Below the pieces are notes generated by a model. It worked only from the letters and a program-made list of their open reading frames with translations. It made no database searches and was not told where the DNA came from. Shown piece by piece: positions 31,431 to 56,540 of a stretch of DNA of 64,000 nt. How positions within the stretch are numbered: the first letter of the stretch is position 1; the number at the start of each line of letters is the position of its first letter. The DNA is from Armatimonadota bacterium (GTDB lineage: Bacteria > Armatimonadota > Fimbriimonadia > Fimbriimonadales > Fimbriimonadaceae): the NCBI GenBank assembly GCA_031400935.1, contig JANNQV010000018.1, forward strand, positions 1 to 64,000, given 5' to 3'. Both the position numbers and the translations under genes were made by a program.

Positions 31431-31444
31431 ATGACCCCGGTCAT
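31431..31444. promoter_or_regulatory. Crp/Fnr-type operator ATGAC-cccg-GTCAT
   Basis: Perfect palindrome centred 42.5 nt before the narK ATG at 31480. Confidence 0.75.
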
Positions 31445-31479: not shown

Positions 31480-32988
31480 ATGAGCGAAAGAGCAACCTCA
31501 AATCGCGTTCTCTTTATGAACACTCTCGCCTTCACAGTCTGCTTTGCAGTTTGGACCATGTACGGCGTTTTGATCACTTTTTTGGTTGACAATCGCTACC
31601 TGATCGCCGACAAAGCGCAATTGGGGTGGCTCATTGGAATTCCGATTCTGACGGGCTCAATTGTCCGTCTCCCCGTCGGATTGATGACTGACCGGTATGG
31701 AGGAAAGCCTGTCTATCTTTCGGTAATGGTGTTCGCTGCGCTTTCGCTCTTCGTGACGAGCCAAGTTTCTACGTTTGCCGGATTTATTGTTGGGGGCCTG
31801 CTCTTCGGAGTAAGCGGCTCTGCATTTGCCGTTGGAATTGCCTACTCTTCTATGTTCTTTCCCAAAGAAAGGCAAGGTACAGCCCTAGGAATTTTTGGTA
31901 TGGGAAATGCCGGAGCGGCAGTAACAACACTAGCTGCACCGACCATGCTGAAAAACTTCACGAACGGCGGCGAGAACATAGAAGGCTGGCGAATGCTTCC
32001 GATCGTTTACGGAATCGCTCTCCTCGTGATGACGGCACTCTTCGCGATATTCACAGTCAATCGAAAAGTAGATGAAGCTGGGCAAAAGACGATCGGACAG
32101 ATGCTAACTCCTCTCGGCGATGTGCGAGTTTGGCGATTTGGCCTTTACTATTTCTTGGTGTTCGGCGCTTTTGTGGCGCTTGCACAATGGCTGGTGCCCT
32201 ACTACCTAAATGTCTATGGAATGAGCCTGGCCATGGCTGGTTTGCTGGCTTCTGTATTTTCGCTGCCGTCAGGAGTGATTCGTGCATTGGGCGGCTGGGC
32301 GAGCGACAAGTTTGGAGCACGGTCCACGATGTATTGGGTGCTTTCGTTTTGCGCAATATGCTTCTTCTTGCTCATCGCCCCGCGAATGGACATCCGCTCG
32401 CCGGGCGAAGGCGTAATGGCCGATCGGGCTGGCAAAGTGGCCTCGGTAGAACAGAATCAAGTGGTCGTTGATTCCTCTTTAGTGAACCAAGAGACGATAA
32501 AGGTCGCCGACCTCAAGACTTACAAGCTGAAAACCGAAGTCGCACTCGACCCCAATTTGCTGGAAGAAGGCGTTCTCGTTTGGCCGACGTTCCGTTCTTG
32601 GCAAGAGCCCGCCGTCAAGCCGGGGCAAGTAGTCAAGAAAAAAGAACTTCTTGCTAAAGGCGTGACTCACGTGTATTTTCAAGCCAACGTCTGGGTGTTC
32701 ACCGGGCTAGTTTTTGTTGCTGGAATCATGATGGGAATCGGCAAAGCGGCTGTTTACAAACACATTCCCGAATACTTCCCGAAAGACGTGGGAGTTGTCG
32801 GCGGAATTGTTGGCGTTATTGGTGGACTAGGCGGCTTCTTCTGTCCGATCCTGTTCGGATATCTGCTGAAGCTCACCGGCCTCTGGACGTCGTGCTGGCT
32901 GTTCCTTGGACTGCTGAGTATCGGGTGCTTAATCTGGATGCACTTAGTGATTTTGAGGATGACAAAAGACATGACACCCGAGAAGTGA
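31480..32988 (+). CDS. narK: NarK-family nitrate/nitrite MFS transporter with a ~100-aa soluble insertion
   Basis: GSIVRLPVG, GTALGIFGMGNAG, YFLVFGAFV, RALGGWASD and GIGKAAVYK motifs. Confidence 0.9.
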   Translation: MSERATSNRVLFMNTLAFTVCFAVWTMYGVLITFLVDNRYLIADKAQLGWLIGIPILTGSIVRLPVGLMTDRYGGKPVYLSVMVFAALSLFVTSQVSTFAGFIVGGLLFGVSGSAFAVGIAYSSMFFPKERQGTALGIFGMGNAGAAVTTLAAPTMLKNFTNGGENIEGWRMLPIVYGIALLVMTALFAIFTVNRKVDEAGQKTIGQMLTPLGDVRVWRFGLYYFLVFGAFVALAQWLVPYYLNVYGMSLAMAGLLASVFSLPSGVIRALGGWASDKFGARSTMYWVLSFCAICFFLLIAPRMDIRSPGEGVMADRAGKVASVEQNQVVVDSSLVNQETIKVADLKTYKLKTEVALDPNLLEEGVLVWPTFRSWQEPAVKPGQVVKKKELLAKGVTHVYFQANVWVFTGLVFVAGIMMGIGKAAVYKHIPEYFPKDVGVVGGIVGVIGGLGGFFCPILFGYLLKLTGLWTSCWLFLGLLSIGCLIWMHLVILRMTKDMTPEK

Positions 32989-34081: not shown

Positions 34082-34125
34082 TTGAGGCTCATAACACTAT
34101 CCCTCAGATAAAGTCGCAACGGTAA

Positions 34126-34353
34126 CTACCCCTTGCGCATTCGGGTGATGCCTCGCAGCATCCAAAAATTTACGCCGAACAAGGCGATGCTTGCGATCGC
34201 AGCAGGTAGAGCCATCTCGGAACGGCCCCCGATTAGGCCCTCCAACACGCTCACGAAGAGCCAGAGCTGCAGGAGGATCAACACTAGGTTGAACAGCAAA
34301 AGTGCAACGATGACCGTACCATGCTGCCGTCGAATAGTATCGCTAGGCTTCAT
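34126..34353 (-). CDS. Small two-TM membrane protein (DUF6755-like)
   Basis: 75 aa with LLQLWLF and two hydrophobic helices; ATGA overlap with the Rieske gene. Confidence 0.7.
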   Translation of the reverse strand: MKPSDTIRRQHGTVIVALLLFNLVLILLQLWLFVSVLEGLIGGRSEMALPAAIASIALFGVNFWMLRGITRMRKG

Positions 34354-35446: not shown

Positions 35447-35793
35447 GCGCTTGTACCTCCAACAGGTGGGCGCACCATGTTTGGCATCAACCCCCTTCGA
35501 CGCTTATGGATGTTAACATAAGTTAACTCTCCCTGCGATGCATGAATGCTGCGATGGCAGCCCTTTGGAAGCACGACAATTGACCCAACACAAAGGGTAG
35601 TTGACTGGCCGTCAACTGTGATTTCGCCCTCTCCGCCAATAACAACCATGATGACGTCCACTTCATCGTTCTGATGATTTCCTACACCCGAACCATCGGT
35701 CCATCGCACCAATGTGGCATTCAAGTCTTCCGTTTCGGTACCCCAAAGAGCACCGTCTGCGCCATCCATGCTTAACGCTTCAACTGCGATCAT
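35443..35793 (-). CDS. Cupin-domain protein
   Basis: HQNDEVD...GEGEITVDG...LPKGCHRS; overlaps both neighbouring genes by 4 bp. Confidence 0.8.
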
Positions 35794-37982
35794 GCAATGG
35801 CCTCCTGATCAGCAGATGAACTGATTCGGACAACCGACTTTTTGTATTCAGGAATCTTGCTCAGCGGGTCGAGTGCGCGGTTCGTGAGGTTGTTCGCAGA
35901 CCGTTTGCCGGGCCAATGGTAAGGGATGAAGATGGTGTCGGGGCGTATCGTAGAAACCACTTTTGCGCGAAGTACAACCTCGCCGCGGCGACTCTCAACC
36001 TTCATCCAACTGCCGTCTTCAATACCGTAATCGGCCGCAAGCGTCGGATGAATTTCAACATACGGCTCAGGGCACATGTCAACCAAACCGCCGATACGAC
36101 GTGTTTGTGTACCGCTAAGATACTGCGAAACGACGCGGCCAGTTGTGAGAATTATGGGATATTCTTCGTCTGGCTCTTCTGCGCTGAGGCGATAAGCCGT
36201 GGGGTGAAAGTGCGCTTTGCCGTCCGGGGTATGAAACTTCATTGTCTCGAACAGTCGCGGAGTGCCAGGGTGGCCGATCTCGGGGCAAGGCCAAAATACG
36301 CCCATCTCGTCCTCGATCCTTTGATAGGTAATCCCGAAATAGTCTGCAGTTCCGCCCTTGCTCGCAATTCGCAACTCGTTGAAAATGTCCTCGCTGGTCT
36401 TAAAGTGATCGAAATACTTGCCCCTGCCAAGCCGCCGGGCGAGTTCGAGAATGATCTCTGTGTCGGCTTTTGCTTCTCCTGGTGGATCAACTGCCTTTCG
36501 AATCCGAATCACACGGCCCTCTGCACTTGTGCTTGTGCCTTCCTCTTCTTCGTGCAATGAGCCAGCGAGCACGATATCTGCGTGGTGGGCGGTCTCATTT
36601 AGAAAGAAATCTATTGCAGAATAGTGCTCGAGTCTGCCAAGTGCGTCCCTCGTGAAGTTAGAATCCGGCAACGAAACCAGTGGGTTGAAGCAAATCGAAA
36701 CGAGTGCTTTGATCGTGCCCTCATGGATCATGTTCATGATCTCTTGAGCGGTGTGTCCCTTTCCGGGCATCTCGCTCTCTTCGATTCCCCAAACAGAGGC
36801 TATGTACGCACGATGCTCCGGATTCTCGATGTCGCGATTACCCGGAAGCTGGTCGCATTTGTGGCCATGTTCTCGACCGCCCTGTCCATTCCCTTGGCCG
36901 GTAATCGTGCCGTATCCGCAACCGGGCTTCCCGAGTCTTCCGGTAGCGAGGACGAGGTTGATGCAGCCGAGCACATTGTCCACACCTTTGGTATGGTGCT
37001 CAATCCCTCGCGCATGTAACAGAAAGCTCGTCTTGGCTTCGCCCCACATTCGGCCCGCCTTCTGGATGTCCTCGACTCTGACGCCGCTAATCCTGGAGGC
37101 CTCCTCCAAGGATTGAGCAAGCGCGCTGGCCCTCGTCTCTTCCCAACCGCTCGTGTGCTCTTGGATGAATGCCTCATTCACAAACCCATCTTCGATCAGG
37201 ACACGCAATATCCCAGTTAACAGAGCACTGTCTGTCCCTGGCCTTACCGGCAAATGCAGATCGCATGTCCGCGCTAGGGGTGTAACGCGAGGATCAATCA
37301 TGATCAGCTTTGCACCACGATCCCTCGCCCGCCAGATATAGTCGGTCGTGATCGGAGAGCACTCCGCTACATTTGTTCCGGCGCAAAGAATTACATCCGC
37401 AAGGACAATGTCGTCCCAAGAATTCGCCGCGCGATCTATGCCAAACGCCTTTTTGTTGCCAGTCCCAGCGCTCACCATGCAAAGTCGCCCGTTGTAGTCT
37501 AATTCTTGTGTTTGCAGAGCAACGCGGGCGAACTTGCCCATGAGGTAGCTCTTTTCGTTCGTCAAGGAGACGCCTGAAAGCACTGCGACGGCATTCTTGC
37601 CGTATTTTTCCTGAACACGCTGAATCTCTCGAACTGTAGTGGAGAAAGCTTCCTCCCATGAAATCGCTTCAAAACCCTTTCCTTCAACCCTTTTCAAAGG
37701 AGAGGTCAGGCGATCTGGGTGGTTGCCTTGCATGTATCGCTTCACGCCCTTTGGGCAAAGCTTGCCTCTGTTGAACGGAAACTCCTCCCAAGGCTCAAAG
37801 CCGATGACCTTGTTCTCTCTAACTTTTAGTTGGATCCCGCATTGTTGGCCGCAAAAACAGCAGTGGGTTTTAACTAGTTTGTCCGGTTCGCCGCGTCCTT
37901 TCCATCCGCCCGGTGGAGTGTCATTTAGGTGAGGGCCAAAGGAGTCTATGAGTTTTTCGACGGCTACCGGTGGTCTCGCCAT
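35790..37982 (-). CDS. Mo-bisPGD oxidoreductase, Nas/Nap/Fdh clade (probable nitrate reductase catalytic subunit)
   Basis: CCFCGQQC...[14 protein letters not shown] (Cys ligand, compare Nas/Nap RLCM); [10 protein letters not shown]; no Tat signal. Confidence 0.85.
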
Positions 37983-38162
37983 AATCTTTTCCAGAGTATA
38001 CGCCAAAGTGAGTTTTCACCAAAAGGCGATCTGAATTGTTCGAGCGATGTTGGGTATTGGTCTGAATGCACCTACTGAGTTTTTTGATCCCAACAGACAT
38101 GACACCGGCAGAGAGACCGGCAATGTGCAATGGCCGACATCAACAATGCTCGCTCCGCCCCC

Positions 38163-39677: not shown

Positions 39678-39691
39678 ATGACAGCCGTCAT
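39678..39691. promoter_or_regulatory. Crp/Fnr-type operator ATGAC-agcc-GTCAT
   Basis: Perfect palindrome in a divergent intergenic region; a -10-like GAGAAT lies 23 nt after it. Confidence 0.75.
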
Positions 39692-39739
39692 AGTGCACGA
39701 GAATACTTTCGGCGAGAATGTAATTGGAGTCCATCCGAT

Positions 39740-41080
39740 ATGTCAACTGCAAACAACAAAGACACGATTGAAAACTGGCAACCAAACGAACCCGAATTTT
39801 GGGAATCTACGGCAAAACCGATCGCATGGAGGACTCTTTGGGTCACTACATTCTGCCTTTTGTTGAGTTTTGCGACCTGGTTCATGGTCAGTGCAATCGT
39901 TGTAAAGCTCACTGGAATTGGGTTCAAATTTGACAAATCGCAGCTATTTTGGCTCAACGCAATGCCTGGTCTGGCGGCTGGAACGTTGAGAATAGTTCAC
40001 ACATTTCTGATCCCGATTTACGGAACCCGAAAAGTCGTGGCAATCTCCACGCTTTTGCTCGCAATTCCGGCGATCGGATGGGGAATGGCTGTTTCTAACC
40101 CGGAAACCAGCTACAGCACGTTTATGATTCTCGCCTTCTTAGCGGGATTGGGCGGTGGTAATTTTAGCTCATTCATGCCCAGCACTTCATTGTTCTTTCC
40201 AAAGAAACTGCAAGGCACAGCGCTTGGGATTCAGGCTGGAATCGGCAACTTTGGCGTCTCCGTTGCCCAGTTCATGATCCCCGTTGTAATTGGCATGTCA
40301 ATGGTTGGCTCCAGCCAGCACTTCGTTGACAAGAAGGGCGACAAGATCGTCAAAGAAGCCGACATCTTCCTTCAGAACGCCGCATTCATATGGGTTCCCT
40401 TTATTATATTGGGAGCGTTGGCGGCATGGTTCTGGCTCAAAAGCGTTCCGGTCCAAGCAAATTTCAAAGAGCAACTTGATATCTTCAAGGAAAAGCACAC
40501 TTGGCTGATGACAAGCCTCTATATCGCAACATTTGGCTCATTCAGCGGATTTGCAGCCGTCTTCCCATTGCTGATAAAGGAAACTTACGGCAAGTTTCCA
40601 GACGGGCCAGATGCGCTGAAATTTGCCTTTCTTGGGCCACTCGTAGGGGCATTGGTTCGTGTTCTCGCAGGGCCCTTTGCCGACAAGTTCGGCGGGGCAA
40701 GAGTGACAACAGTGAGTTTGATCGGCATGTTCGGATTTGCGATTGCTGTCACGCAATTTACGCACCCGACCGACCTTTCGACCTGGGGCGGATTCTTGTG
40801 GTGCATGTTAGGGCTCTTCTTCTTTAGCGGAATCGGTAACGCGAGCACCTTCAAGCAAATGCCAATGATCTTCCCTCCGCGCCAAGCAGGTGGCGTAATT
40901 GGTTGGACGGCCGCCATTGCAGCATACGGGCCGTTTGTGTTCTCCGTGTGCTTCGGAGCGATCATCGCTCGAACAGGCAATGGAACGGCGTTCTTCTACT
41001 GCGCGGCAGTATTTTATGCAATCAACTTTTTCATTAACTATTGGTACTACGACCGAAAGAATGCGGAGAAGCCGTGCTAA
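39740..41080 (+). CDS. narK: NarK2-type nitrate/nitrite transporter
   Basis: WQPNEPEFW, AGLGGGNFSS, GIGNFGVS, FGSFSGF, GIGNASTF and AIAAYG motifs; GGAG RBS before ATG 39740. Confidence 0.92.
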   Translation: MSTANNKDTIENWQPNEPEFWESTAKPIAWRTLWVTTFCLLLSFATWFMVSAIVVKLTGIGFKFDKSQLFWLNAMPGLAAGTLRIVHTFLIPIYGTRKVVAISTLLLAIPAIGWGMAVSNPETSYSTFMILAFLAGLGGGNFSSFMPSTSLFFPKKLQGTALGIQAGIGNFGVSVAQFMIPVVIGMSMVGSSQHFVDKKGDKIVKEADIFLQNAAFIWVPFIILGALAAWFWLKSVPVQANFKEQLDIFKEKHTWLMTSLYIATFGSFSGFAAVFPLLIKETYGKFPDGPDALKFAFLGPLVGALVRVLAGPFADKFGGARVTTVSLIGMFGFAIAVTQFTHPTDLSTWGGFLWCMLGLFFFSGIGNASTFKQMPMIFPPRQAGGVIGWTAAIAAYGPFVFSVCFGAIIARTGNGTAFFYCAAVFYAINFFINYWYYDRKNAEKPC

Positions 41081-42279: not shown

Positions 42280-42609
42280 CTAGTTCCCAGGCTCGGATAG
42301 GTCGTGCCCATCAATTCTGGCGATGACAATTCTGGACTTGTCATCCGTTTCGAATTGAATCGTCCATACATCGTCGGCTCTGGTTCCCCAGAAAAAGCGA
42401 TTGCCCTGCTGGCCAAAGAATCGCTCAGCCTCTGATAGTGGGCGGTGTTCTGCCACAAGTTTCTTGCACCACTCTCTCACTTGTTCTGATTGAGTAATCC
42501 ATCGGCTGGCGTCAAACGATCGGAGTGATTGGCCCACCAATATCAGAACGCCAAGCACAAGGTTTAGTAGAAGGCTCAATGTCAGCAAGACTACAAAACT
42601 TGACTTCAT
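42280..42609 (-). CDS. Hypothetical membrane-anchored protein
   Basis: MKSSFVVLLTLSLLLNLVLG... with a single TM segment, in the same orientation as the upstream operon. Confidence 0.5.
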   Translation of the reverse strand: MKSSFVVLLTLSLLLNLVLGVLILVGQSLRSFDASRWITQSEQVREWCKKLVAEHRPLSEAERFFGQQGNRFFWGTRADDVWTIQFETDDKSRIVIARIDGHDLSEPGN

Positions 42610-42716
42610 ACATGCAAGACGAGCCTTTCGCAGTTGATGCTCCATTTCAGGTGCAGGGTAACCCAAGAAACTTGTCCACGACCGTTTCGCGAAGAAAGCG
42701 ACGTGCAATCAAACTA

Positions 42717-43901
42717 CTAATGCTCTGAAGTAGCAATCCCTTCCGGCGCAATGTGAACCGGAGTTTCCAAAATCCCTTTCATCGTCATCAGGCCGATGAG
42801 GAGAATCACAAAAACCCCTGCAACGATCACGAAACCTCGTTTCGCAGGGTGCCTGGATTCAGACTTGTCAATCCAAGGCAAAGCAAACATCCCTATAGTT
42901 ATGGCTCCAGGAATGATGAGCGTTGCCACCATCTCCCATCCAGCAGGCATGATCTTTAGAAGTTCAAAAAGACCGAGGAAGTACCATTCCGGCCTTGGCG
43001 CAAATTCGGTTCCCGTTGGATCAGCCCTGCCCTCTAGGCCAGCAGGAAATGCATTCGCGAGAGCAAATATGATAGCAAGTCCCGCCACGACGACGACGGC
43101 GTCCTTGAAGAGCTGCCCAGGAAAGAACGGCTGCGGCTTGCCCTTTTGCGGAATGACTGGACCTGCGATGTGGTGACGACGAACTAGGTAAAGATGAATT
43201 CCTACAAATGCCATGAGAGACGCGGGCAATAGCATGACGTGCGCCGCATAAAAGCGAGTCAGAGTCAATGCGCCGACCTCGTTTCCTCCACGAATTAGCA
43301 CCATCATCATGTCGCCAACGACGGGAATCGTTCCTGCGATACGAGTTCCAACAACAGTCGCCCAATACGCCTTTTGATCCCATGGAAGCAGGTAGCCAGT
43401 GAATGAAAAGGCGAGCATGACTTGGAAGATCAGAACGCCAAAAACCCAAGTCAGTTCTCGCGGCTTTTTGTACGATCCCCAGAAGAAAACTCGAAGCGTG
43501 TGCATGACCATTGCCACGACAATCGCCGTCGAGCCCCAAATATGGAGTCCTCGCACTAACGAGCCAGCCGTCACGCCCTCTGTGATGTGTTTGACAGAAT
43601 CGTATGCCGATTGCGGGCTCGGGCTGTAGTACATCGCCAGGGCAACGCCGGTTGTAAATTGGAAAACCAATAGCGTCAAGAGCAAGTTGCCCAAAGTCTG
43701 CCACCAACCGACACCAGGAGGCATGGGCTCATCCAGATTCTTTCGAACAAATCCCCACCAGCCAATGCGCAGTTCAAGCCAGTCTTTGAGCCCAGGACGC
43801 TCACGGACCATCTGCTGCTCTGGCTGCTCGGGGCCGATTGTGACGATGGGACGTTCGATCGTCTCGCTTTTGGGTGTGGAAGTTGGTGGTTCCTTTATCA
43901 T
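42717..43901 (-). CDS. Cytochrome b subunit of a Rieske/cytochrome b complex (unsplit)
   Basis: RGLH...MHTLRVF, GYLLPWDQ, RFYAAH-x14-H and PEWY motifs. Confidence 0.93.
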   Translation of the reverse strand: MIKEPPTSTPKSETIERPIVTIGPEQPEQQMVRERPGLKDWLELRIGWWGFVRKNLDEPMPPGVGWWQTLGNLLLTLLVFQFTTGVALAMYYSPSPQSAYDSVKHITEGVTAGSLVRGLHIWGSTAIVVAMVMHTLRVFFWGSYKKPRELTWVFGVLIFQVMLAFSFTGYLLPWDQKAYWATVVGTRIAGTIPVVGDMMMVLIRGGNEVGALTLTRFYAAHVMLLPASLMAFVGIHLYLVRRHHIAGPVIPQKGKPQPFFPGQLFKDAVVVVAGLAIIFALANAFPAGLEGRADPTGTEFAPRPEWYFLGLFELLKIMPAGWEMVATLIIPGAITIGMFALPWIDKSESRHPAKRGFVIVAGVFVILLIGLMTMKGILETPVHIAPEGIATSEH

Positions 43902-43904
43902 GGC

Positions 43905-44468
43905 TTATACCTTTCGGCTCACAAAAATCTTGCCGTTTTCGATTTTGACGGGGTGCTCGACAAGTCCAGAAGGCGGCGGTCCAGAAACCACTTTGCCGAC
44001 TTCGTCAAAGACCCCTCCGTGGCACGGGCAGAAATATCGCTTCTGATCGTCTTGAAAATTGACTTTGCATCCCAGGTGGGTGCAAGCAGGATCAAAGCAC
44101 TTGACATCAGATTCAGTTCGGTGCAAAAAAACTGTGTATTTTCGGTCTACGGCTTGGTAGCCATCTACGATGTTCATCACATACGAAACTTCCCTCGTTT
44201 GGCCGAGTGCAAGGTCAGCGTCGTCCAAAATAGGCATCCATCGTTCGGTTAGCTTTGTTGAAATTGGAGCTGCCGCGAAGCGTACAACGGGAATTGCGAG
44301 AGCTAGTCCGACCGCGATGTTTATTCCAGTGACCAGCCATCGGAGAGCGGTTCTGCGGCTTACCGATTCGACATGCTCAGGCTCAAGATTGGTGCCGCAC
44401 GAACAAGCAGGAGGGCATCTCTTGCTTGGATCGGGTCCATCGGATTTAAATACATTCAGTTCTTTCAT
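43905..44468 (-). CDS. Rieske iron-sulfur subunit of the Rieske/cytochrome b complex
   Basis: SRRTAL followed by a TM segment; CTHLGC; CPCHGGVF; SGPPP. Confidence 0.92.
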   Translation of the reverse strand: MKELNVFKSDGPDPSKRCPPACSCGTNLEPEHVESVSRRTALRWLVTGINIAVGLALAIPVVRFAAAPISTKLTERWMPILDDADLALGQTREVSYVMNIVDGYQAVDRKYTVFLHRTESDVKCFDPACTHLGCKVNFQDDQKRYFCPCHGGVFDEVGKVVSGPPPSGLVEHPVKIENGKIFVSRKV

Positions 44469-44480
44469 AGCAGTGATCTG

Positions 44481-45611
44481 TTAGGGGTAATAGCGAATCG
44501 TGATTTCCTTTGCCGGTTCGTCGTAGACTCGAGCAACGACGTCCTCAGCGATTCGAAGCGACTTGTGATGGCGTCCTGGGCTTGGTTCTCGAAGGAATCC
44601 AATTTCAACTCCGGAAGCTGTTACCGCTTCGGTCACTTTCGTTAGAGACACCATGATCGGGACAATCCATGCGTGTTGGAACCGTGTGAACGGTGCCGAA
44701 ATCATGAGCGCACACACAAAAGCTAGGTGGTAGATGTAAATCGGCATTACCCAGCCAAATGCGGTTGTCCGATTGATTACGAGCGTGAGAATGCCGCTCA
44801 ATACGGTTTGGAAGAGTAGGAATACAAACAGATAATCGCGGCCAAGAGTTAGCCCGTTGTCAATGTACTCGTCGGTTTTGTACCGCTTCATGACGTAAGC
44901 GACGCCGATCAAAACCATGACTCCGGCAAAAATCGGAAGGATCTTCAGGGGGTTACTCAACGCCAAATCGGCTCGAGTCGGATTGAAAATCTGCATCAAA
45001 ATGTCAGCAGTAGCAAGGCCGATCATTCCATAGAGCATCAGACCGTGCATCGCCCATAGGTGCTTGCTCTTTCTCCAAAGGGATCCGACGAAGAGGCCGT
45101 CGAAAATGAGCGACTTCAAGGCAACACCGAGCGCTTTACCGTATCCAAACCTTCGTAGGGCTGGTTTCATATATTTGAATCCAGCCAGCTTCACCCAATA
45201 AGCGATTCCTCGAATCACGAAAATGAAACTGAACAAAGAAACTGCGAGGAAGATTTTGGCTACGTTTTTTGTAGTCAACATTGAGCCAACTTTAAAGGCA
45301 AGCGGGATCTGCTCTTCATTCCACGGCCTAGCTTTTACGTCATCGTAAATGGTCTTAGCATCCTCGTTTGACAGTTGTTCGACAGGCGTGCCCGGCATCA
45401 TGCCCTTTCCGTTTCGAACTGTGTTGAGGAACTCGATTTGTTCAAGTTTGGTCTGTGCTAGGGGAGGTCCTAAGCCGCCCATTGCAGTCATTCCATGGCA
45501 GCCCATGCATGACGAGCTTTCAAAGGCATCTTTCTTTTTGAGGTCAGTCTGGGAACCTGAAATGGTAACAATTAGAATCAGTAATCCGAGAATTGAAATC
45601 AGTTTTCTCAT
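44481..45611 (-). CDS. Fusion of a monoheme cytochrome c and a NarI-like membrane heme b domain
   Basis: Signal peptide; CMGCH with GP and a distal MP; then about 5 TM segments with WAMH and H-x17-H (YH...PFTRFQH). Confidence 0.8.
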   Translation of the reverse strand: MRKLISILGLLILIVTISGSQTDLKKKDAFESSSCMGCHGMTAMGGLGPPLAQTKLEQIEFLNTVRNGKGMMPGTPVEQLSNEDAKTIYDDVKARPWNEEQIPLAFKVGSMLTTKNVAKIFLAVSLFSFIFVIRGIAYWVKLAGFKYMKPALRRFGYGKALGVALKSLIFDGLFVGSLWRKSKHLWAMHGLMLYGMIGLATADILMQIFNPTRADLALSNPLKILPIFAGVMVLIGVAYVMKRYKTDEYIDNGLTLGRDYLFVFLLFQTVLSGILTLVINRTTAFGWVMPIYIYHLAFVCALMISAPFTRFQHAWIVPIMVSLTKVTEAVTASGVEIGFLREPSPGRHHKSLRIAEDVVARVYDEPAKEITIRYYP

Positions 45612-46300
45612 GGTGCAACCTCCTCAAAAACTTCGGGCTTTGCCGCTTGACCAAGAGTCGAGACGTCTTGCGATGCCATCGGTCCAAGATATCGTCCCGA
45701 TGGTTTTGTTCCTGCTTCTGGCAACAGGCAGAACGGATCACGATCCGTTTCATCCTGCTGCTCTTTGATGTACATTCTCAGTTTGCCTTTGGGGTCGTCT
45801 AGATCGCCAAAAATTCTTGCAGTTGTCGGACAAGCCACAACACACGCTGGGTCAAGTCCTTCATCTACCCGGTGAGCGCAATACGTGCATTTCCTCGCGA
45901 TTCCAGAGTTCAATCTTGGCTTGACATTGTCCCTTTCATAAGGCTCATCTTCGTTCAAATACCAAAGTTCGGATTCTTGAAGAATGATGTTTCCGTACGG
46001 GCATGCGGATACGCATGCGCCAGTCCCACGGCATCGGTCTTGGTCAATCAAAACGATCCCATCGTGCCTCTTTACGATTGCCTTGTTCGGGCAGGCCTTT
46101 AGGCAAGGAGGGTCCTCGCAGTGATTGCAAAGGACTGGGATGTAGAGCCGTTTTACATTTGGATAAGTGCCCGACTCTACATTGATCACTCGCGCAAAGA
46201 AGACATCCATGGGGGTGCCGTTTTCTTGTTTGCAAGCCACCGTGCATGCATCGCACCCAATGCATCGGGTGAGGTCAATGAGCATAGACATCTTAGGCAT
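45608..46300 (-). CDS. 4Fe-4S dicluster subunit (NrfC/DmsB/PsrB-like)
   Basis: CIGCDAC, CNHCEDPPC, CRGTGACVSACP (one Cys replaced by Thr) and KCTYC motifs. Confidence 0.92.
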   Translation of the reverse strand: MPKMSMLIDLTRCIGCDACTVACKQENGTPMDVFFARVINVESGTYPNVKRLYIPVLCNHCEDPPCLKACPNKAIVKRHDGIVLIDQDRCRGTGACVSACPYGNIILQESELWYLNEDEPYERDNVKPRLNSGIARKCTYCAHRVDEGLDPACVVACPTTARIFGDLDDPKGKLRMYIKEQQDETDRDPFCLLPEAGTKPSGRYLGPMASQDVSTLGQAAKPEVFEEVAP

Positions 46301-48738
46301 TACTTCACGCTCCTAATGTCGACACGAGTATCTTTCCAGTGCTGACCAGGTGCATAGACAGCAGGTAGATAGTAGTTTTCGTGAGTTGCTTTCACCTTTT
46401 GATGGGTGTGGACAGAATGGTACTTTCCGCCTCCCAAATACCGGTCCCACCAACCGTGGTCAACGCAAAGCACACCGGGTTTGATCGTTTCCGTCAGCAA
46501 TGCCCAGAGCTTGTAGGATCCGTTGTAATTGAAGATTTCGACCGGGTCGCCATCGCGAATCCCGCGTGCAGCGGCATCGCGCGGATTGATTTCGACGACG
46601 GCTCCCCGGTTCAGGTTGAGCAACAGTCGATTGTTGCTGTGAGTCGAGTGAACTCGCCACTTACTGTGGGGAGTAACGATGCTAAGTGGGAGTTTTTGAT
46701 CCTCGACTGGCAGGTGTGAAAACGCAGGTTTGTAGATTGGAATTGCCTCGCCGAATTGGCGAAACACATCTTCCTCTTTGTAAAATTCCATCCGTCCGGT
46801 CTTTAGGAACTCGCGCTGAGCGCCTTCGGGGAATGGATACGCTCGAGGAGGGAACAGCTTGTCTTCCAGAAATTGCTCATCACATCCGACTTCAGGATCG
46901 TGAACATTAAGTCGAACAGGGCCCTGCAGAAGCTTTTCGTAAGTTATTCCTGCGACTTCTTTGCCGCCGCTTGCAAGCATCATGTCGATGATTTCCGGCT
47001 CTTCAAAGTCCATTTCTTTGAAAAGAGTTGGGTCTACTCTGCGAACAATTTCTTTAACCATCCAGAGTTCAGTTCTGCTATCGTATTGTGGGGAAACGAC
47101 CTCCTGTTGGATTTGAAGGTATGGGTGGCACGATGTCCCAACCAACTCTTTCTTTTCCCAAAAAGTCGGGGCAGGAAGAACGACATCGCTGTAATCACAC
47201 GTCGGCGACATCGAAAAATCAATCGTCACGAAAAGATCAAGCTTGTCGATCGATTCCTTTAGTGGCGTCGAGAATTCAGTGACTAACGGGTTTCCGTGAG
47301 AAACAAACAGTGCTTTGAAACCGTTTTTTGGATACTTGATCTTCGGGTTAATCGTTTCCGTCGGCTGACCCATCACAAAGTAGTGCATTGGCACACCGTT
47401 CGGTCTCTTTCCATCTGGGAACCACCATTTGCTCACATCTAGCCTAAAATGGTGTTGGCCGGAGTAAATGGAAACGGATTCGCCTGGCTTTCCGTGTGCA
47501 CCCACCAATGCAGATAGAAGCAAAATTGAGCGAATAGTAAGGTCGCCGTGAAGTCTGTGATTGACGCCCATTCCAATGATGATCGAACTTGGCCGATTGA
47601 GGGCATATTCCTTTGCAATCTCACGTATGGTTTCGGCTGGTATGTCGCAAGTCTTCGCTACGATTTCGGGCTTGTATTCATCCCGCATGATCGTGTCTTC
47701 GAGCGTTTGGAAGACAGGCGTGACCTTTACTTGGTTTCCGCCAATGGTAACAGTTTGCGTTCCTCTAAAGGATGGCTTTAGACCTTCAGGAAGCTTCAGT
47801 GATTCGGTTGGCAGCTTAGCCAAGGAATCCGTTGTCTCATCCCAAACCATGAACTCCATATCGGTTCCCGATCCAACATCAGATGCCCGGAGACGCTGGC
47901 CGTTGTCTTCTCGAATGAGAGTGCAGACGTCCGTGTATTTTCTTAGGAATTCCCAATCAACCCAGCCGCCTTCTAGCACGGTGTAGCACATGGAAAGGGC
48001 TAAGAGTCCGTCTGTGCCTGGGTGGATCGGTGCCCAAAGGTCGGCACCCTTGGCAGTTTGGCTGCACCGTGGATCAATGACAATGATCTTGCAGTTGTTT
48101 CGCTGTTTGGCGACTGTAGTAAGAAATTTTGCGTCTGGAATTCGAGTTTGAAACACATTGCTTGACCAAAGAATGGCAGTTTTGGCGTGCCCCCAACTCT
48201 TGGTTTCGCATTCGACGCAGTCAATGCCCATGGTATGGGTAAAACCCATCGAAATGTCGCCATTGAAATCGTATGCTGTCGCAAAGCTCATCCCGAGAAG
48301 CGCTGCCATTCGTACTTGGGCGCCCTTTTGCACATATCCTGTTCCAACAACTTGGTTGAAAAGGAGCATACTTTCAGGGCCGTAGTTGTCCCGAATGTGA
48401 GTCATTTTGTCGGCGATGTAGTCAAGGGCTTCATCCCAGCTAACTTCTCGCCATTTTCCTTCGCCTCTCTCGCCAGCCCGAATGAGAGGCTTTTTGACTC
48501 GATCCGGCCCATAGATCAAGTGGGTCATCGCCATTCCGCGCAAGCAACCGCGAGGATTGTATTCGGTGCAAGGATAATCTGCAGCCGGCTTCAGGTCTAC
48601 AATAACGTCGTCAACAACCGTCGCCAACCAGCCGCATGCGCCCGTGCAATTTGGACTATCGGTGGTGCGCACTACGCGAGTTTCGCCAGGTGCCTTGGTC
48701 GCGCCTTGTCTGCCGGGAACCGAATATCGAGTTGCCAA
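46300..48738 (-). CDS. Mo-bisPGD oxidoreductase, type II (Asp-ligated; Nar/Pcr/Ser/Nxr-related), substrate unassigned
   Basis: DSPNCTGAC...NPRGCLRG; AYDFNGD; TRIPDA; TPHSKWRVHST; 812 aa; no twin-arginine signal; GAGGAG RBS with TTG start. Confidence 0.85.
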   Translation of the reverse strand: MATRYSVPGRQGATKAPGETRVVRTTDSPNCTGACGWLATVVDDVIVDLKPAADYPCTEYNPRGCLRGMAMTHLIYGPDRVKKPLIRAGERGEGKWREVSWDEALDYIADKMTHIRDNYGPESMLLFNQVVGTGYVQKGAQVRMAALLGMSFATAYDFNGDISMGFTHTMGIDCVECETKSWGHAKTAILWSSNVFQTRIPDAKFLTTVAKQRNNCKIIVIDPRCSQTAKGADLWAPIHPGTDGLLALSMCYTVLEGGWVDWEFLRKYTDVCTLIREDNGQRLRASDVGSGTDMEFMVWDETTDSLAKLPTESLKLPEGLKPSFRGTQTVTIGGNQVKVTPVFQTLEDTIMRDEYKPEIVAKTCDIPAETIREIAKEYALNRPSSIIIGMGVNHRLHGDLTIRSILLLSALVGAHGKPGESVSIYSGQHHFRLDVSKWWFPDGKRPNGVPMHYFVMGQPTETINPKIKYPKNGFKALFVSHGNPLVTEFSTPLKESIDKLDLFVTIDFSMSPTCDYSDVVLPAPTFWEKKELVGTSCHPYLQIQQEVVSPQYDSRTELWMVKEIVRRVDPTLFKEMDFEEPEIIDMMLASGGKEVAGITYEKLLQGPVRLNVHDPEVGCDEQFLEDKLFPPRAYPFPEGAQREFLKTGRMEFYKEEDVFRQFGEAIPIYKPAFSHLPVEDQKLPLSIVTPHSKWRVHSTHSNNRLLLNLNRGAVVEINPRDAAARGIRDGDPVEIFNYNGSYKLWALLTETIKPGVLCVDHGWWDRYLGGGKYHSVHTHQKVKATHENYYLPAVYAPGQHWKDTRVDIRSVK

Positions 48739-48806: not shown

Positions 48807-48820
48807 ATGACCGTCGTCAT
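48807..48820. promoter_or_regulatory. Crp/Fnr-type operator ATGAC-cgtc-GTCAT
   Basis: Perfect palindrome about 70 nt upstream of the type II molybdoenzyme operon. Confidence 0.75.
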
Positions 48821-48862: not shown

Positions 48863-49000
48863 TAGGACTTGCAGGTCAAATAGGACTTATTCGACAAATG
48901 TAACAGATGGCACCTATCTGTCTTACCCGTCCTATTTGACCAATAAGTCCTATTTTGGAAGGCAAACCCGAACCAAGCCGAACTAACCCGAACCTCGCCC
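48863..49000. repeat. Nested palindrome plus 10-mer tandem repeats
   Basis: GGTCAAATAGGAC pairs with GTCCTATTTGACC, and ATAGGACTTATT with AATAAGTCCTAT; CCGAAC recurs with period 10 at 48965-48995. Confidence 0.7.
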
Positions 49001-49704
49001 TAATTCCTCAAAACTAGCTCAAGCGCATTTGGGTCGGCAATGGTGATGTGCTGATGCTCGGTCGTCACCATGCTGATTTTGTTCCACTTTGATAACGTTC
49101 GAATCGTTGTCTCGGTAGTTGTTCCAGACATCTCACCGAGTTCTTGGCGTGTGAGGGGAATCGTCAATCGAATAGCGTTTCCATTTTTCTCGCCATAAGA
49201 TTCTGCAAGCAAAAACAAGATAGCGGCGATTCTTTCCTCGACTCTGCCAGTCGAGAGCCTCGCCATAAAGTCAAGCTTTGAGTGCATTTGTAGGGCGACT
49301 TTCTTGACAAGCCTTTGCTGAATCACCGTGCTTGCCTCATAAATCGGCGTAAAAACGCGCTTTGGAATCCTGAGATACTGCGTTTTTGTCAGTCCGTAGG
49401 CGCTTAGCGGGCAGCCATCGCCGCTTACAGTTCCAAGCAAGCCGAAAATCTGCCCCGGTCCCATGATTTCGAGGGTAACTTCTATTCCGCTCGAATTGCT
49501 GCGGACCATCTTTACAAAACCAGCCCCGACAAGTCCAAAAAAATCGGTCTGGCTTCCGTCAAACCAAATTAGCTCGCCGCGATCGCACTTTGAGAGGCGC
49601 GACTGTTCTGCCAATCTTTCAAAGTCGGCTTCCGAAATGCCTCCGAGAAGTGTATTTGAACGCAGAACTCTTCGAACCGAATTCTCTAAAGCTACGGACC
49701 GCAT
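49000..49704 (-). CDS. Crp/Fnr-family transcriptional regulator (DNR/HcpR-like, no N-terminal Cys cluster)
   Basis: cNMP-binding-type domain (GPGQIFG), VEERIA, and HTH LTRQELGEMSGTTTETTIRTL. Confidence 0.92.
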   Translation of the reverse strand: MRSVALENSVRRVLRSNTLLGGISEADFERLAEQSRLSKCDRGELIWFDGSQTDFFGLVGAGFVKMVRSNSSGIEVTLEIMGPGQIFGLLGTVSGDGCPLSAYGLTKTQYLRIPKRVFTPIYEASTVIQQRLVKKVALQMHSKLDFMARLSTGRVEERIAAILFLLAESYGEKNGNAIRLTIPLTRQELGEMSGTTTETTIRTLSKWNKISMVTTEHQHITIADPNALELVLRN

Positions 49705-50908: not shown

Positions 50909-53299
50909 CTAAATTGGTATGAATGGTCGTTTCAAAACTTCAAGTTCGCCGGATTCGACTTTCTTGGCGCGAACTGCGACTTTGCGAGCGACTCGGCGAT
51001 AGTAGGCAGACATGAATCCACCCATCGTCATAATTGCTGTACCTAGCCACACAAGACTAGTCATCGGCTTCACATAAATCTCTAACGGGTACATCGGCTT
51101 GGCAAGCTGAACTTGCAAAGTAACCGCTTTTGTTGCTGCATCCATGCCAGTCATTTGAACCTCAAACGAGTCGCCCAGTTTGCCTGCGTGCTGTTTCGTG
51201 CCAGACATTCCTAGTTCCATTTTGGGAGTTGTTGTAAAGGCTCCCTGTGCTGATTTGACGTTTAACTCGGCACCGAATTTCGTCCCCGCCATACCTGAAT
51301 CGCCGTCACGAACCATCTTTTTGTAGGTCATCGTATAGCCGGAAAACTCGCGCGATTCGCCCGGCTTCAAAGTGAAAGGCTCGGTTGCATCGCGCTGGGG
51401 CTCATGCATCGTAAAATAGAGGTCGTAAAACGCTGTTCGCTGAACGTGCGGCCACGCCATCGGGTCTTTGTGTCCGTCATCCTCGATGTAATAGAATCCA
51501 GGCGAAGCCACAAACTCGACTGGTTTTGAACCGTTCGCCGAAATGACTTCAAATTGCATCTTGTTTTCTCTATCGGCAAAGTTTGAAGTCATTCCCTTGT
51601 ACCGAATGGCGTAATCCATGAGAGTTCCAGGGTGGCCGTCCATGACGAACGTTTGAATCTTGCGCTCGAATCCGCGGGAAACAATGAGTCCAGCCATAAG
51701 CATCGCGATTCCGCTATGGGCGATGAACGAAGCCCAAGCCAGCTTGGAAGCTTTGCGAAGCTCGTACATTCGCCACGCTGTACCGACCAAAATCAAAACG
51801 CTGAGTCCAGCTAAGAACACAACCCATGCAAGATTCGAAATTTTCAATCCAAACGGGAAACTCGAAGTACCCGTCAGATCAGCTAGCTTGCCTAGAGGGC
51901 TGAAAACGACAGCTAAGAGAATGAATCCGCAGGCTCCGACCGCAATGCAGAACAATGAATAGGCTCGCTTTAGAATGTCCTTCAAGGATGCGCCGTTCCA
52001 CGCCACAAACGGAGCAATCGCCATGAGGATCATTATCGGCACGAATATCCAAGGAAGCACTTTGTGATAGGTAGCTTCTTCGACGACCTTTGGGGGCCTG
52101 CCCTGTAATGCCATAAAGAAGGGAATGCTCATCCCGATCATCGTCGCCAAACCCATGGTGCCCAAAAGCATCGCGCCAATGCGATAGATTCCTTCCCTGT
52201 GAAAGCCTTTGATTTCAGCGACAGGCGGCTCAACAATCTTTCGAGATTGGATGGCGCGAAAGCTCCAGAGTCCGAAAAACGATACGCTGGAAATCGCCAT
52301 CACGCCCATGAGCAAACGCAGTGCAGAGCGATCCATTTCGGCAAAGCTATGAACGCTTGCTTCGGCGAGAAATCCGCTTCGGGTCAAAAAAGTCCCATAT
52401 ACGAAGGTCAGAAACGGCAGCCCTCCCATGAGAAGATTTGCCATCTTCCACTTGTTCTTTACAACTTGGACAATGACCCCATGAATGAAGGCAGCGCAAA
52501 GACACCAAGGAACAAAGCTCACGTTCTCGACGGGATCCCACATCCAAAATCCGCCCCAGCCGAGAGTCTCGTAAGCCCAGAATCCGCCCATGCAAAGGCC
52601 GACTCCGACGAGAGTTGTCGAGAGGATCGCCCATGGTCGAACGATTCCAATCCATGCGTCGTGTTTATTGGTGATTAGAGCCGCCAAGGCAAGTGCAAAT
52701 AGAACGGTAAGCGAACCAAAGCCCATGAAGATAACTGGCGGATGAATCGTAACCCAGTAGTTTTGAAGAGATGGAGCCAGTCCTCTGCCATCGGCAGGAA
52801 CAACGGCTGCCCCTTCTGACAGGATGAGCTTGAAAGGAGACTCGTAGGCTAAGATCGCTACAATGGCACCTAGGAATCCCGAATAGATAATGCTGTACCA
52901 GCGGCGATATTCCCCAGTTCTGCCTACCGCAAGTAAGCCAAAAACTGCTGCAGCGACCGCCCAGAGCAGGAAGCTGCCTGGCTGGCCGGACCAGACTGCT
53001 GCAAGCTTGTAAATCAGCGGGTTCCTCAGATCTGAATGTGCCCAAATATATTCAAACTCAAACCGATTGTTGAGGAAGAGCGTTGCCAAACTCACAAAAA
53101 TCGCAATCGTCGACAGGCAACCTGCGGCAAAGGCGAATTTGCCGACTTTTTCGAACCGCGCATCTGACTTGCCGAAGAGCCATGCAAGTGCAGCGATCCC
53201 GAAAAACGCGACGGCGACGAGGACGCTTAAGCGTCCTGCGTCGCCGACGGTAAGAGACCATGCGGGCGGAGTAGCAACAGTTAGTGTATTGGCGTCCAT
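50909..53299 (-). CDS. ccmF: CcmF/NrfE-type heme lyase (cytochrome c maturation)
   Basis: WSGQPGS, IHPP, WAYETLGWGGFWMWDPVEN, GTFLTRSG and SVHSF motifs. Confidence 0.92.
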   Translation of the reverse strand: MDANTLTVATPPAWSLTVGDAGRLSVLVAVAFFGIAALAWLFGKSDARFEKVGKFAFAAGCLSTIAIFVSLATLFLNNRFEFEYIWAHSDLRNPLIYKLAAVWSGQPGSFLLWAVAAAVFGLLAVGRTGEYRRWYSIIYSGFLGAIVAILAYESPFKLILSEGAAVVPADGRGLAPSLQNYWVTIHPPVIFMGFGSLTVLFALALAALITNKHDAWIGIVRPWAILSTTLVGVGLCMGGFWAYETLGWGGFWMWDPVENVSFVPWCLCAAFIHGVIVQVVKNKWKMANLLMGGLPFLTFVYGTFLTRSGFLAEASVHSFAEMDRSALRLLMGVMAISSVSFFGLWSFRAIQSRKIVEPPVAEIKGFHREGIYRIGAMLLGTMGLATMIGMSIPFFMALQGRPPKVVEEATYHKVLPWIFVPIMILMAIAPFVAWNGASLKDILKRAYSLFCIAVGACGFILLAVVFSPLGKLADLTGTSSFPFGLKISNLAWVVFLAGLSVLILVGTAWRMYELRKASKLAWASFIAHSGIAMLMAGLIVSRGFERKIQTFVMDGHPGTLMDYAIRYKGMTSNFADRENKMQFEVISANGSKPVEFVASPGFYYIEDDGHKDPMAWPHVQRTAFYDLYFTMHEPQRDATEPFTLKPGESREFSGYTMTYKKMVRDGDSGMAGTKFGAELNVKSAQGAFTTTPKMELGMSGTKQHAGKLGDSFEVQMTGMDAATKAVTLQVQLAKPMYPLEIYVKPMTSLVWLGTAIMTMGGFMSAYYRRVARKVAVRAKKVESGELEVLKRPFIPI

Positions 53300-53382
53300 G
53301 GTCTTTTCAGCTTGAGAATGAAGATCGTTTACAAGAGATTTGGTGGGTGCCGGTCAGGGGAAATGACCGGCACCCTCAGCGG

Positions 53383-54828
53383 TTAGTGATCATTCTCCGT
53401 CATATCCGCAACAGATGCTTTCTTCGCATCTCTCTCCAGTATCTGAAGCTTTGCAGCGACAGAGATGTTTGTTGGTCGAGCCGGAGGAATCGTAAGATCG
53501 TCCATGTTTTGGTTGGCAATCATGATTAGGTGCTTTGCATACGGAGCGTTATGGGCTCCATAGTCACCAGACCGGATGACGAAGTAGTAGTTGTGCCGTG
53601 AGCGTTTGATCTGAATCGGCACGCCAGACTGCGTTGGCGGCGTACCACCTTCAGCTGTGATGTTTGACGTGTATTCCCAATACAGGTCATTGCCATACGT
53701 AGTTGTTGCCCAAGCTTCCATGCGCAGTTTCAACGCATATAGCTGGTTTATGATCGTGTCCTTTTCGTTCTGAATACGAACAGCGGCATCTTGGGCCGTG
53801 TGGCAAGGCGAACAGCTCTTATCATAGCTAACCGTGAACGTATGCCGCGAATCGGGCATGTGGCACTTGCTGCATTGCCCCGGAATTGTTGCATGGGTCG
53901 TGTTGCGTTCCACCGGCCCAGATCCTTCAACACCTCCAAAACCCATCAGCATGTTGTATTGATTGCTGTCATGCATGCTCGGGCGGCTTGTACCTGAGTT
54001 CAGCTTTGCATCAGCAGGATCAGTACCCCTTCCGTTGTGGCATTGTGCGCAACTGTGATCGAATGTAGTGAAAGAAGCTGCTGTGCTGCTTGGGCCAACA
54101 GGTGTAATGTCCGTGTTGAACGTCTTTCGACGCAATTGCACTTCCTTTCCATCATCAGTCAGGTTTCCAGTTTTGCCGTGCGGATCGTGGCAGCTCACAC
54201 AGTCAGCGACATGTGGAACTGGACCCATGGTTGCTCGGCAATACTCTTGTATTTCGGCATCCGTCATAGCCCCCAAATCTGCCCCATTGTTGATCGCAGC
54301 ACGAACAACGCCGCTATGGCAGGCTATGCATCGGGACGTCCTGCCGTATTGGCCGGGATTCAAAATCGCATTTGCCACGGGGCTTGCAACGAGCTTGCTA
54401 TGTTGCGAGACGTTGAATTGGTCATGCGCGGTCCCATGGCACTGGCCGCAGATCACTGGAGAAGCCGTAAGTGGGAAAGTGAGGATTTTGCCTACGGTTT
54501 CCGGATCAGCGGCATGCTCGCTTCCAGGCCCATGGCATCGCTCGCAACCGACACCTTTGTCGAAGTGAACCGTGTCTCTCCAATGCTCATATATTGTTTC
54601 TCCATCGGTTGCTCCACCATGGCAAACGGCAGTAGCACACGATTCGCTACCGATATAGGTTGCATCCCTTTGTTCCGGTGAAAGAAGTGCTAGGAACGCC
54701 GCAGTAGGTGCAGGAAGCCCTCCAGGATTCCCCGTCGGACCACCTTCGCCGCCACAGCTTTGCAACGCCAGCAAGGCCGCTGCAAAAGGGATGGCTGCGA
54801 ACGCTGTTAAAAACCATTTATATTTCAT
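53383..54828 (-). CDS. Octaheme cytochrome c lipoprotein
   Basis: Lipobox LQSC; CATAVCH plus seven CxxCH motifs (CERCH, CGQCH, CIACH, CVSCH, CAQCH, CSKCH, CSPCH); helical C-terminus with GAHNAPY. Confidence 0.88.
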   Translation of the reverse strand: MKYKWFLTAFAAIPFAAALLALQSCGGEGGPTGNPGGLPAPTAAFLALLSPEQRDATYIGSESCATAVCHGGATDGETIYEHWRDTVHFDKGVGCERCHGPGSEHAADPETVGKILTFPLTASPVICGQCHGTAHDQFNVSQHSKLVASPVANAILNPGQYGRTSRCIACHSGVVRAAINNGADLGAMTDAEIQEYCRATMGPVPHVADCVSCHDPHGKTGNLTDDGKEVQLRRKTFNTDITPVGPSSTAASFTTFDHSCAQCHNGRGTDPADAKLNSGTSRPSMHDSNQYNMLMGFGGVEGSGPVERNTTHATIPGQCSKCHMPDSRHTFTVSYDKSCSPCHTAQDAAVRIQNEKDTIINQLYALKLRMEAWATTTYGNDLYWEYTSNITAEGGTPPTQSGVPIQIKRSRHNYYFVIRSGDYGAHNAPYAKHLIMIANQNMDDLTIPPARPTNISVAAKLQILERDAKKASVADMTENDH

Positions 54829-54877
54829 TGCTTTTCTCCGCAGATTTGTCGCTTTATCATCAAATTCATTTTTCTTT

Positions 54878-56533: not shown

Positions 56534-56540
56534 AAACTCC

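Follow-up and report, generated by a model that had tools for sequence, protein, structure and literature searches.

The window analysed here is a 64,000-nucleotide (nt) stretch of contig JANNQV010000018.1 from an Armatimonadota bacterium, in which positions 42,717 to 48,738 carry an operon of five minus-strand genes. The operon encodes a molybdenum (Mo) enzyme, its iron-sulfur (FeS) subunit, a cytochrome c fused to a membrane anchor, and a Rieske/cytochrome b pair. This five-gene set is real, conserved and uncharacterised. What is new is the catalytic clade and its dedicated operon; the coupling mechanism considered below had been proposed before. The enzyme probably reduces nitrate. There is an even chance that it works as a serial nitrate reductase, in which electrons would pass from a Q-cycle to the cytochrome c, and then through the anchor to the Mo site.

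Operon layout and conservation

The tight linkage of the five open reading frames (ORFs), as described in the first-pass annotation of this DNA, was confirmed. The window sequence shows overlaps of TAATG at 46300 and ATGA at 45608-45611, and gaps of 12 nt (44469-44480) and 3 nt (43902-43904). A GAGGAG ribosome site precedes the TTG start of the Mo gene. The genes are as follows (aa, amino acids; Tat, twin-arginine translocation).

46300..48738, minus strand: catalytic subunit with Mo-bis(pyranopterin guanine dinucleotide) (Mo-bisPGD), 812 aa, TTG start, Asp161 ligand, no Tat signal
45608..46300, minus strand: four-cluster FeS subunit, 230 aa, no signal
44481..45611, minus strand: signal peptide, periplasmic class I cytochrome c and five-helix anchor of the NarI/QmoC/EMO type, 376 aa
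43905..44468, minus strand: Rieske protein with twin-arginine membrane anchor and low-potential CPCHGGVF box, 187 aa
42717..43901, minus strand: unsplit cytochrome b, PEWY at 304-307, without the haem ci cysteine, 394 aa

Named homologues assign the window to the Fimbriimonadaceae (Armatimonadota) or their near relatives. The scan of species genomes for the enzyme gave 64 loci, of which L063, a member of a Tat-bearing sister group, was set aside. Among the remaining 63, 14 end too soon for the gene order to be judged. All five genes are present in order in 41 of the 49 judged loci (two of the 41 are from Acidobacteriota), and the Rieske/cytochrome b genes are thus kept beside the enzyme in other genomes. 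Five of the 49 are a three-gene form from Bacillota, with Mo, FeS and anchor genes and no cytochrome c. The scan of metagenomes gave three loci, one of which (the distant contig L111) is informative. The enzyme was also found in 39 of 161 Fimbriimonadales genomes (each at least 90% complete), many from anammox and wastewater reactors; these genomes are kin, and the co-occurrence counts given below therefore describe a pattern and not independent trials.

Some loci show other peculiarities. L012, L041 and L043 have an extra gene, for a small membrane protein of about 155 aa, that separates the Mo gene from the FeS gene. The Mo gene in L024 (10001-12431) has a frameshift near its end and no partner genes downstream, which might be decay or an assembly error. 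L035, a record titled as a methanogenic archaeon, holds an Armatimonadota-type gene at 79% identity with matching neighbours, and is probably a misbinned contig. In the window, a 142-aa single-helix ORF (42280-42708) starts 8 nt past cytochrome b; it had no match in the 64 loci and no Pfam family.

Catalytic subunit, sidedness and substrate

The 812-aa protein had been called a type II dimethyl sulfoxide (DMSO) reductase family subunit without a Tat signal, and both statements hold. Its best NCBIfam match is TIGR03479, the type II DMSO reductase model (476 bits; cut-off 985), and no twin-arginine leader is present; a Tat signal and a score above that cut-off would mark the periplasmic type II enzymes (pNar, Pcr, Clr, Ser, Ddh, Ebd). 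The NarG model TIGR01580 gave 257 bits (cut-off 1084). The Mo ligand Asp161 aligns with NarG Asp222 and with the PcrA ligand, and is invariant in 61 of 61 rows. The FS0 motif is D27-C31-C35-C65, so that a D-x3-C-x3-C pattern is found rather than the His-Cys3 motif; Asp27, where NarG has His, occurs in 59 of 60 clade rows, and the other row has a gap. Around the active site, A155 and H429 replace Phe and Glu of NarG. The best-scoring solved relatives were 5E7O/4YDD (which we take to be perchlorate reductase) with 339 bits, EbdA with 236 and NarG with 219. The NxrA-type structure 7b04_B gave 119 bits, and the size (about 1150 aa), CSPNDTHAC motif and high 7B04 score of the periplasmic NxrA type are all lacking. 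An enzyme of that type, with 1701 bits to 7B04, is encoded by a separate Tat-bearing operon in genome G138 (L103:3706-11784), and such enzymes occur in 10 of the 161 genomes. Another Mo enzyme without Tat signal, of 909 aa, lies behind a fused FeS/NrfD-like gene in genome G000 (C4:25681-30012).

A phylogenetic tree was reconstructed from 34 of 93 rows (LG+G4). The references were NarG of E. coli and Thermus, NarG and DmsA of Haloferax, ClrA, an NxrA-type enzyme and library hits; named PcrA, SerA, DdhA and EbdA sequences stand outside the tree. The Tat-less enzymes form a single clade (support 100/100), in agreement with a 93-row FastTree that had 62 of 150 library hits, picked by length and rank. 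This clade is nested among uncharacterised Tat-bearing proteins (100/98), and together with this kin it is the sister of the NarG + pNar + Nxr + Clr group (99/97). A 27-row clade unites these Asp-ligand enzymes with the NarG, Nxr and Clr lineages (100/100). The structure 4YDD is placed on the other side of the tree, because it scored 922 bits with the pNar-like P0129 (601 bits with P0176). The catalytic subunit thus lies outside NarG, pNar, Nxr and Clr, and nests in no characterised clade; none of the contrary patterns that the first-pass annotation had named, and that could be looked for in sequence, was found.

Clade members are annotated generically or as perchlorate reductase in database records. 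The accessible part of a survey of the DMSO reductase family (PMC10100899) does not mention Armatimonadota, and no description of the operon or the clade was found in a literature search whose coverage left out most subscription journals. Two candidate relatives were rejected: the NarG of Acididesulfobacillus acetoxydans is canonical because it is 52% identical to E. coli NarG (PMC10949509), and the Sporomusa ovata nitrate reductase is described as a NapA.

The FeS subunit had been described as a dicluster protein, which does not hold. Four Cys groups were found instead (13/16/19/23, 58/61/66/70, 90/96/100 and 138/141/153/157), for three [4Fe-4S] clusters and one likely [3Fe-4S] cluster. No twin-arginine leader was found on this subunit. 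A single reading frame runs from the FeS domain through a hydrophobic helix and the cytochrome c to the anchor in 21 of 49 relatives, and the linking helix has a 19-residue mean hydropathy of 1.40 to 2.72. Cytochromes c receive their haem on the outer side of the membrane, which places the FeS domain, and with it the Mo subunit that binds it, on the inner side, even if the helix is cleaved afterwards. These fusions support the cytoplasmic Asp-type Mo site that had been suggested, and the predicted topology shows the Mo/FeS head facing the cytoplasm.

With its cytoplasmic active site (by topology) and its NarK linkage (by gene context), the enzyme would work like a Nar, but it fails to belong with NarGHI in size (about 1200 aa for NarG), in clade, in the His count of the anchor (four in NarI) and in the chaperone. 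For the latter, the earlier observation that NarJ/TorD is missing was borne out: no family match (PF02613 for NarJ) was found in genome G000 (95.6% complete), where positive controls matched.

The evidence for the substrate comes largely from the gene context. The following features lie around the operon.

48807..48820, no strand: palindromic operator ATGAC-N4-GTCAT, upstream of the operon
49000..49704, minus strand: Crp/Fnr-family regulator gene
39678..39691, no strand: operator ATGAC-N4-GTCAT upstream of narK2
39722..41080, plus strand: narK2, nitrate/nitrite transporter of the NarK/NarU type
31431..31444, no strand: operator ATGAC-N4-GTCAT upstream of narK1
31480..32988, plus strand: narK1, NarK-family transporter

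The operator noted earlier as shared with the two narK genes has exactly three copies in the window, one each ahead of the Mo gene, narK1 and narK2. With one mismatch allowed, seven matches were found versus 1.98 expected, and none of 100 shuffles had as many. The 300 nt that precede the Mo gene contain the form ATGAY-N4-RTCAT or an FNR-like variant in 43 of 57 loci, versus one of 57 coding controls, and the operator was found upstream of narK1 in 15 of 20 cases. The Crp/Fnr-family protein is likely the reader of this operator. Position 39722 is the likelier start of narK2, because a longer ORF from 39545 runs through the operator.

The window also holds a second, NasC-like nitrate reductase candidate (35790-38006), which could explain the narK genes as well; that they fit nitrate as the substrate of the present enzyme could therefore not be taken from the shared operator alone, and the genomes were split by the NasC-like gene. 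In the 95 genomes without it, narK2 is present in 10 of 14 with the enzyme and in none of 81 without the enzyme, and in the other four of the 14 a NarK-family gene lies no more than about 10 kb from the enzyme. Of the 63 loci as fetched, 35 include a NarK gene (27 of these 35 have no NasC-like gene), and in the distant L111 a NarK gene is directly upstream. Canonical narG was found in none of the 39 enzyme-positive genomes; it occurs in two of the 161, both without the enzyme. Desulfosporosinus paludis SB140, which has the three-gene form, is reported to use nitrate as electron acceptor and to contain menaquinone-7 (PMC11771766), and no narG match and no NapA-level match was found in its genome. 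Its three genes adjoin genes for hcp, hemerythrin and a SLAC1-family channel. The absence of narG, the NarK linkage, the shared operator and D. paludis all point to nitrate, as had been suggested, as the likely substrate.

As for the surroundings, the NasC-like Mo subunit (839 bits; cut-off 1100) lies with cupin, FeS and Rieske genes at 33047-38006, and its gene is present in 66 of the 161 genomes. A three-His NarI-like gene lies behind narK1. Window positions 50909-57518 encode CcmF, two multihaem cytochromes (one with 7 haems, the other DmsE-like with 9) and a 570-aa protein that matches no family, together a possible porin-cytochrome conduit. D. paludis also has a PhsA-like Mo operon followed by apparent Rieske, split cytochrome b and cytochrome c genes (L120:3223-9003).

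Electron route and rival explanations

The 376-aa protein had been read as a cytochrome c fused to a NarI-like domain, with the cytochrome in the periplasm, and this reading stands. The cytochrome part matches PF13442 (haem site C35-C38-H39, Met72 ligand); the anchor matches NarI weakly (PF02665), and its best NCBIfam match is QmoC. In some relatives the anchor is joined to two or three cytochrome c domains. The anchor has three of the four haem histidines of NarI (H189, H295 and H313) and invariant D203 and K223; K223 might correspond to NarI Lys86, which the profile alignment set against P221. The positions His+10 and His+14 are Leu and Asp in 44 of 44 cytochrome c-fused anchors, and Met and Thr in six of six Bacillota anchors, which lack the cytochrome; the two groups are also two lineages, and the difference may therefore be one event. 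The L111 anchor, read by eye, sides with the fused type. This suggests that the distal site may have been rebuilt at the arrival of the cytochrome c. The anchor model had a predicted local distance difference test (pLDDT) score of 82.6, and Foldseek gave no match at E 0.001 or better. In a second fold comparison, in which helical bundles call for caution, the best match was M. smegmatis EtfD (9OJN; Z 12.4, root-mean-square deviation 4.8, 245 aligned), and the NarI fold reached Z 9.5-10.7. Solved three-His domains are reported to vary: MsEMO (M. smegmatis EtfD) has one proximal haem and a menaquinone site, and SaEMO (Syntrophus EMO) has three haems, a proximal one and a distal twin haem (PMC13083937; bioRxiv 10.64898/2026.08.18.745454).

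The sequence features of the Rieske/cytochrome b pair are those of a bc complex. The Rieske protein has its cluster boxes and a Tat anchor and precedes cytochrome b, which has the haem ligands H120, H134, H221 and H236, the PEWY motif and D267. The Rieske boxes, the four haem His, PEWY and Asp267 are kept in 43 of 43 proteins, and the haem ci Cys is absent. The potential-setting Rieske positions are Gly in 42 of 43 and Phe in 43 of 43, a box of the low-potential type (PMC3509893), and the menaquinone pathway gene mqnC was found in five of five genomes. That the pair is dedicated to the enzyme, as first proposed, is supported by the distribution of the cytochrome b orthologue (at least 68% identity), which is present in 38 of 39 enzyme-positive and in none of 122 enzyme-negative Fimbriimonadales genomes. 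No second Rieske/cytochrome b pair was found in genome G000, where a further cluster is presumably an alternative complex III (ACIII) that serves the single haem-copper oxidase. The operon has no c1/f gene; its one c haem is that of the fused cytochrome c, which is the sole candidate for the acceptor subunit of the bc pair. Modelling of the complex, suggested by the first-pass annotation, supported the association weakly: the anchor, cytochrome b and Rieske together scored 0.46 versus 0.00 for the best control, the runs agreed in at least 51% of contacts and partner pLDDT was at least 70, and scores of at most 0.60 were seen for 18 of 157 solved complexes and for both of the passing mismatches. 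G000 also encodes a divergent cytochrome b with a C-terminal cytochrome c motif and no Rieske gene beside it (C28:188099-189325).

From these parts the serial route may be pictured as follows. Under low oxygen the Crp/Fnr regulator would switch on the operon and the NarK transporters. Menaquinol would be oxidised at Qo by the Q-cycle, for which the sequence features are present, and the Rieske protein would reduce the anchor-fused cytochrome c, a stand-in for cytochrome c1. Electrons might then go inward through the distal and proximal b haems of the anchor, which is the weakest step, and on by way of the four FeS clusters and FS0 to Mo with its Asp ligand, where nitrate would be reduced to nitrite in the cytoplasm; the location follows from topology and the substrate from genetics. 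About four charges would be moved per two electrons instead of two, and a span of about 505 mV has been judged sufficient (PMC7931247). A hard-wired menaquinol:nitrate supercomplex, in which an undescribed early-branching nitrate reductase clade has a Q-cycle in series with an inward wire, comes a little short of an even chance. We would give much the same weight, just under one half, to the history this implies, with loss of the Tat signal, capture of a NarI/EMO-type anchor, and then gain of the fused cytochrome c and an own bc complex. The distal haem site may, with nearly even likelihood, be remodelled, possibly Asp-ligated or twin, with about four charges conserved per nitrate.

Several observations weigh against this route or against nitrate. 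The distal haem of the anchor is its weakest link: the fourth NarI His (helix 2, distal haem) is absent in 50 of 50 anchors, and M. smegmatis EtfD is reported to hold one haem with menaquinone beside it (PMC13083937; bioRxiv 10.64898/2026.08.18.745454). The Bacillota forms have neither the cytochrome c nor an adjacent bc pair, so that direct electron transfer from quinol to the core should be possible. In L111 the cytochrome c is fused but Rieske/cytochrome b genes are not adjacent, and the Mo gene stands apart from the other genes in three of the 49 judged loci (L007, L008 and L024). Among the several other Mo enzymes of D. paludis, those examined are similar to DmsA or PhsA or are of unplaced type. 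Only two of five Bacillota genomes, with D. paludis not among them, gave a NarK-family match, and the literature search turned up no assay of a clade member.

The anchor might oxidise menaquinol itself like NarI, with at most two charges per two electrons at the nitrate step, and the cytochrome c and the bc pair would then be a co-regulated side branch to periplasmic acceptors (NrfA, an oxidase), along the lines put forward for Thermus NarC; this is possible but rather unlikely. The reading draws on the three-His anchor being closest to the single-haem EtfD, on the existence of the three-gene forms, and on NrfA in three of five genomes, besides the Thermus precedent. The periplasmic-side residues D203 and K223 might make up a quinol site, which we liken to that of NrfH. 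However, G000 keeps the bc pair and shows no NrfA, no NirK and a single haem-copper oxidase (NirS was not searched), which leaves few acceptors for a side branch there. In Thermus, NarC takes the place of complex III, whereas the present operon encodes the complex itself, and the cytochrome b orthologue never occurs without the enzyme. A Nitrobacter-like nitrite oxidoreductase, in which electrons pass from nitrite through Mo, the anchor and the cytochrome c to an oxidase with the bc pair running in reverse, seems improbable. The same parts fit that direction (PMC7694296), and NarK serves either direction. The relative BBO22827.1 comes from Ca. Nitrosymbiomonas proteolyticus, called a nitrite oxidiser from its nxrAB; that nxrA (NPRO_14140) might be a different gene, as its product name differs from that of BBO22827.1. 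Against it, no RuBisCO was found in five of five genomes (other carbon fixation routes were not searched), which leaves reverse flow with little use, although 38 of 39 genomes retain the bc pair. Moreover, a separate NxrA-type enzyme with Tat export is present in seven of 39 genomes, the core is found in strict anaerobes, the operator is FNR-like, and the bc pair, needed in the forward route, would be needless for oxidation by a heterotroph.

Another substrate (chlorate, selenate, an N- or S-oxide), or a dehydrogenase reducing menaquinone for the bc pair, is also quite unlikely. The clade is separate with uncharacterised sisters, the active-site residues A155 and H429 differ, the best plasmid relative (32% identity) adjoins chlorite dismutase, and the Bacillota loci adjoin the SLAC1-family channel instead of NarK. 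These points are opposed by the NarK genes in the loci, the NarK profile across genomes, the shared operator, and the growth of D. paludis on nitrate without narG or napA. In this family, some activity on chlorate or selenate as a side reaction would nevertheless be expected. Least credible is a pNar-like periplasmic head, with Mo and FeS subunits carried out on the Rieske Tat signal as in arsenite oxidase. The Rieske protein does have a twin-arginine anchor, sister lineages are Tat-exported, and haloarchaea pair Rieske/cytochrome b with a periplasmic Nar. On the other side, the FeS domain is fused ahead of the membrane helix that precedes the periplasmic cytochrome c, NarK is linked, and the Bacillota forms have neither a Tat signal nor a Rieske gene, which counts against export on the Rieske signal.

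Comparison with known systems

A Q-cycle-driven cytoplasmic nitrate reductase with doubled energy yield is an open proposal, which has so far rested on Streptomyces spores. Here every needed part lies in 6 kb, some in one polypeptide, so that the idea is directly testable, and the natural three-gene and five-gene forms offer a built-in comparison. If the serial proposal is true, wastewater and soil bacteria may gain about twice the usual energy from nitrate respiration, and respiratory nitrate reductases would include one more type, which surveys of narG and napA do not see. If the enzyme reduces nitrate, its hosts would be overlooked nitrite suppliers, and the nitrate growth of D. paludis without narG or napA would be explained.

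E. coli NarGHI (1Q16) and PcrA (4YDD) share with the present enzyme the Asp ligand, the YD-x3-D motif, a His near Mo and the NarI fold. The differences from E. coli NarG include the length (812 versus 1247 aa), Asp for His at FS0, the 230-aa FeS subunit and the three-His anchor. Thermus thermophilus NarCGHI (L098) also has a cytoplasmic Mo/FeS head, a NarI-family anchor and a periplasmic cytochrome c (PMC7694296), with a Crp-family regulator and a transporter next door. Its NarG has about 1200 aa, however, NarJ is present, and NarC is a separate dihaem protein thought to be an outward electron route (PMC7694296). Haloferax mediterranei pNar with NarB/NarC (L097) likewise has a low-potential Rieske protein and cytochrome b beside an Asp-type Mo enzyme (PMC3509893), whereas its catalytic subunit is Tat-exported, has TorD, and lacks a NarI-type anchor and c haem; it is about 30% identical and belongs to another branch of the tree.

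The anchor resembles the EMO/EtfD, HdrE and QmoC domains in its five helices, three conserved His and the same 18-residue spacing in helix 5 (PMC13083937; bioRxiv 10.64898/2026.08.18.745454). In the accessible parts of these reports, no such domain is described together with a Mo enzyme or with a periplasmic cytochrome c fused to it. By counting rather than alignment, the anchor residue at His+14 (helix 2) is Asp, versus Ala101 in SaEMO and Ser in HdrE.

The closest precedent for the coupling is Nar1 of S. coelicolor with the bcc-aa3 supercomplex, for which a route from the Q-cycle through cytochrome c to the NarI haem bD was proposed, with 4 H+ instead of 2 (PMC7931247). The proposal was based on genetic dependence and co-purification, with the electron route given as a hypothesis (PMC7931247). 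The first-pass annotation had suggested a bc-coupled oxyanion reductase moving up to about four charges; its parts, and nitrate as the likely substrate, are upheld, but the mechanism is less new than was implied, since it had been proposed for Nar1. The two systems differ in that the canonical NarGHI of Streptomyces borrows the aerobic supercomplex, whereas the present operon has its own genes for the Rieske/cytochrome b pair and for a cytochrome c whose haem domain is part of the anchor protein, and its Mo subunit comes from a different clade.

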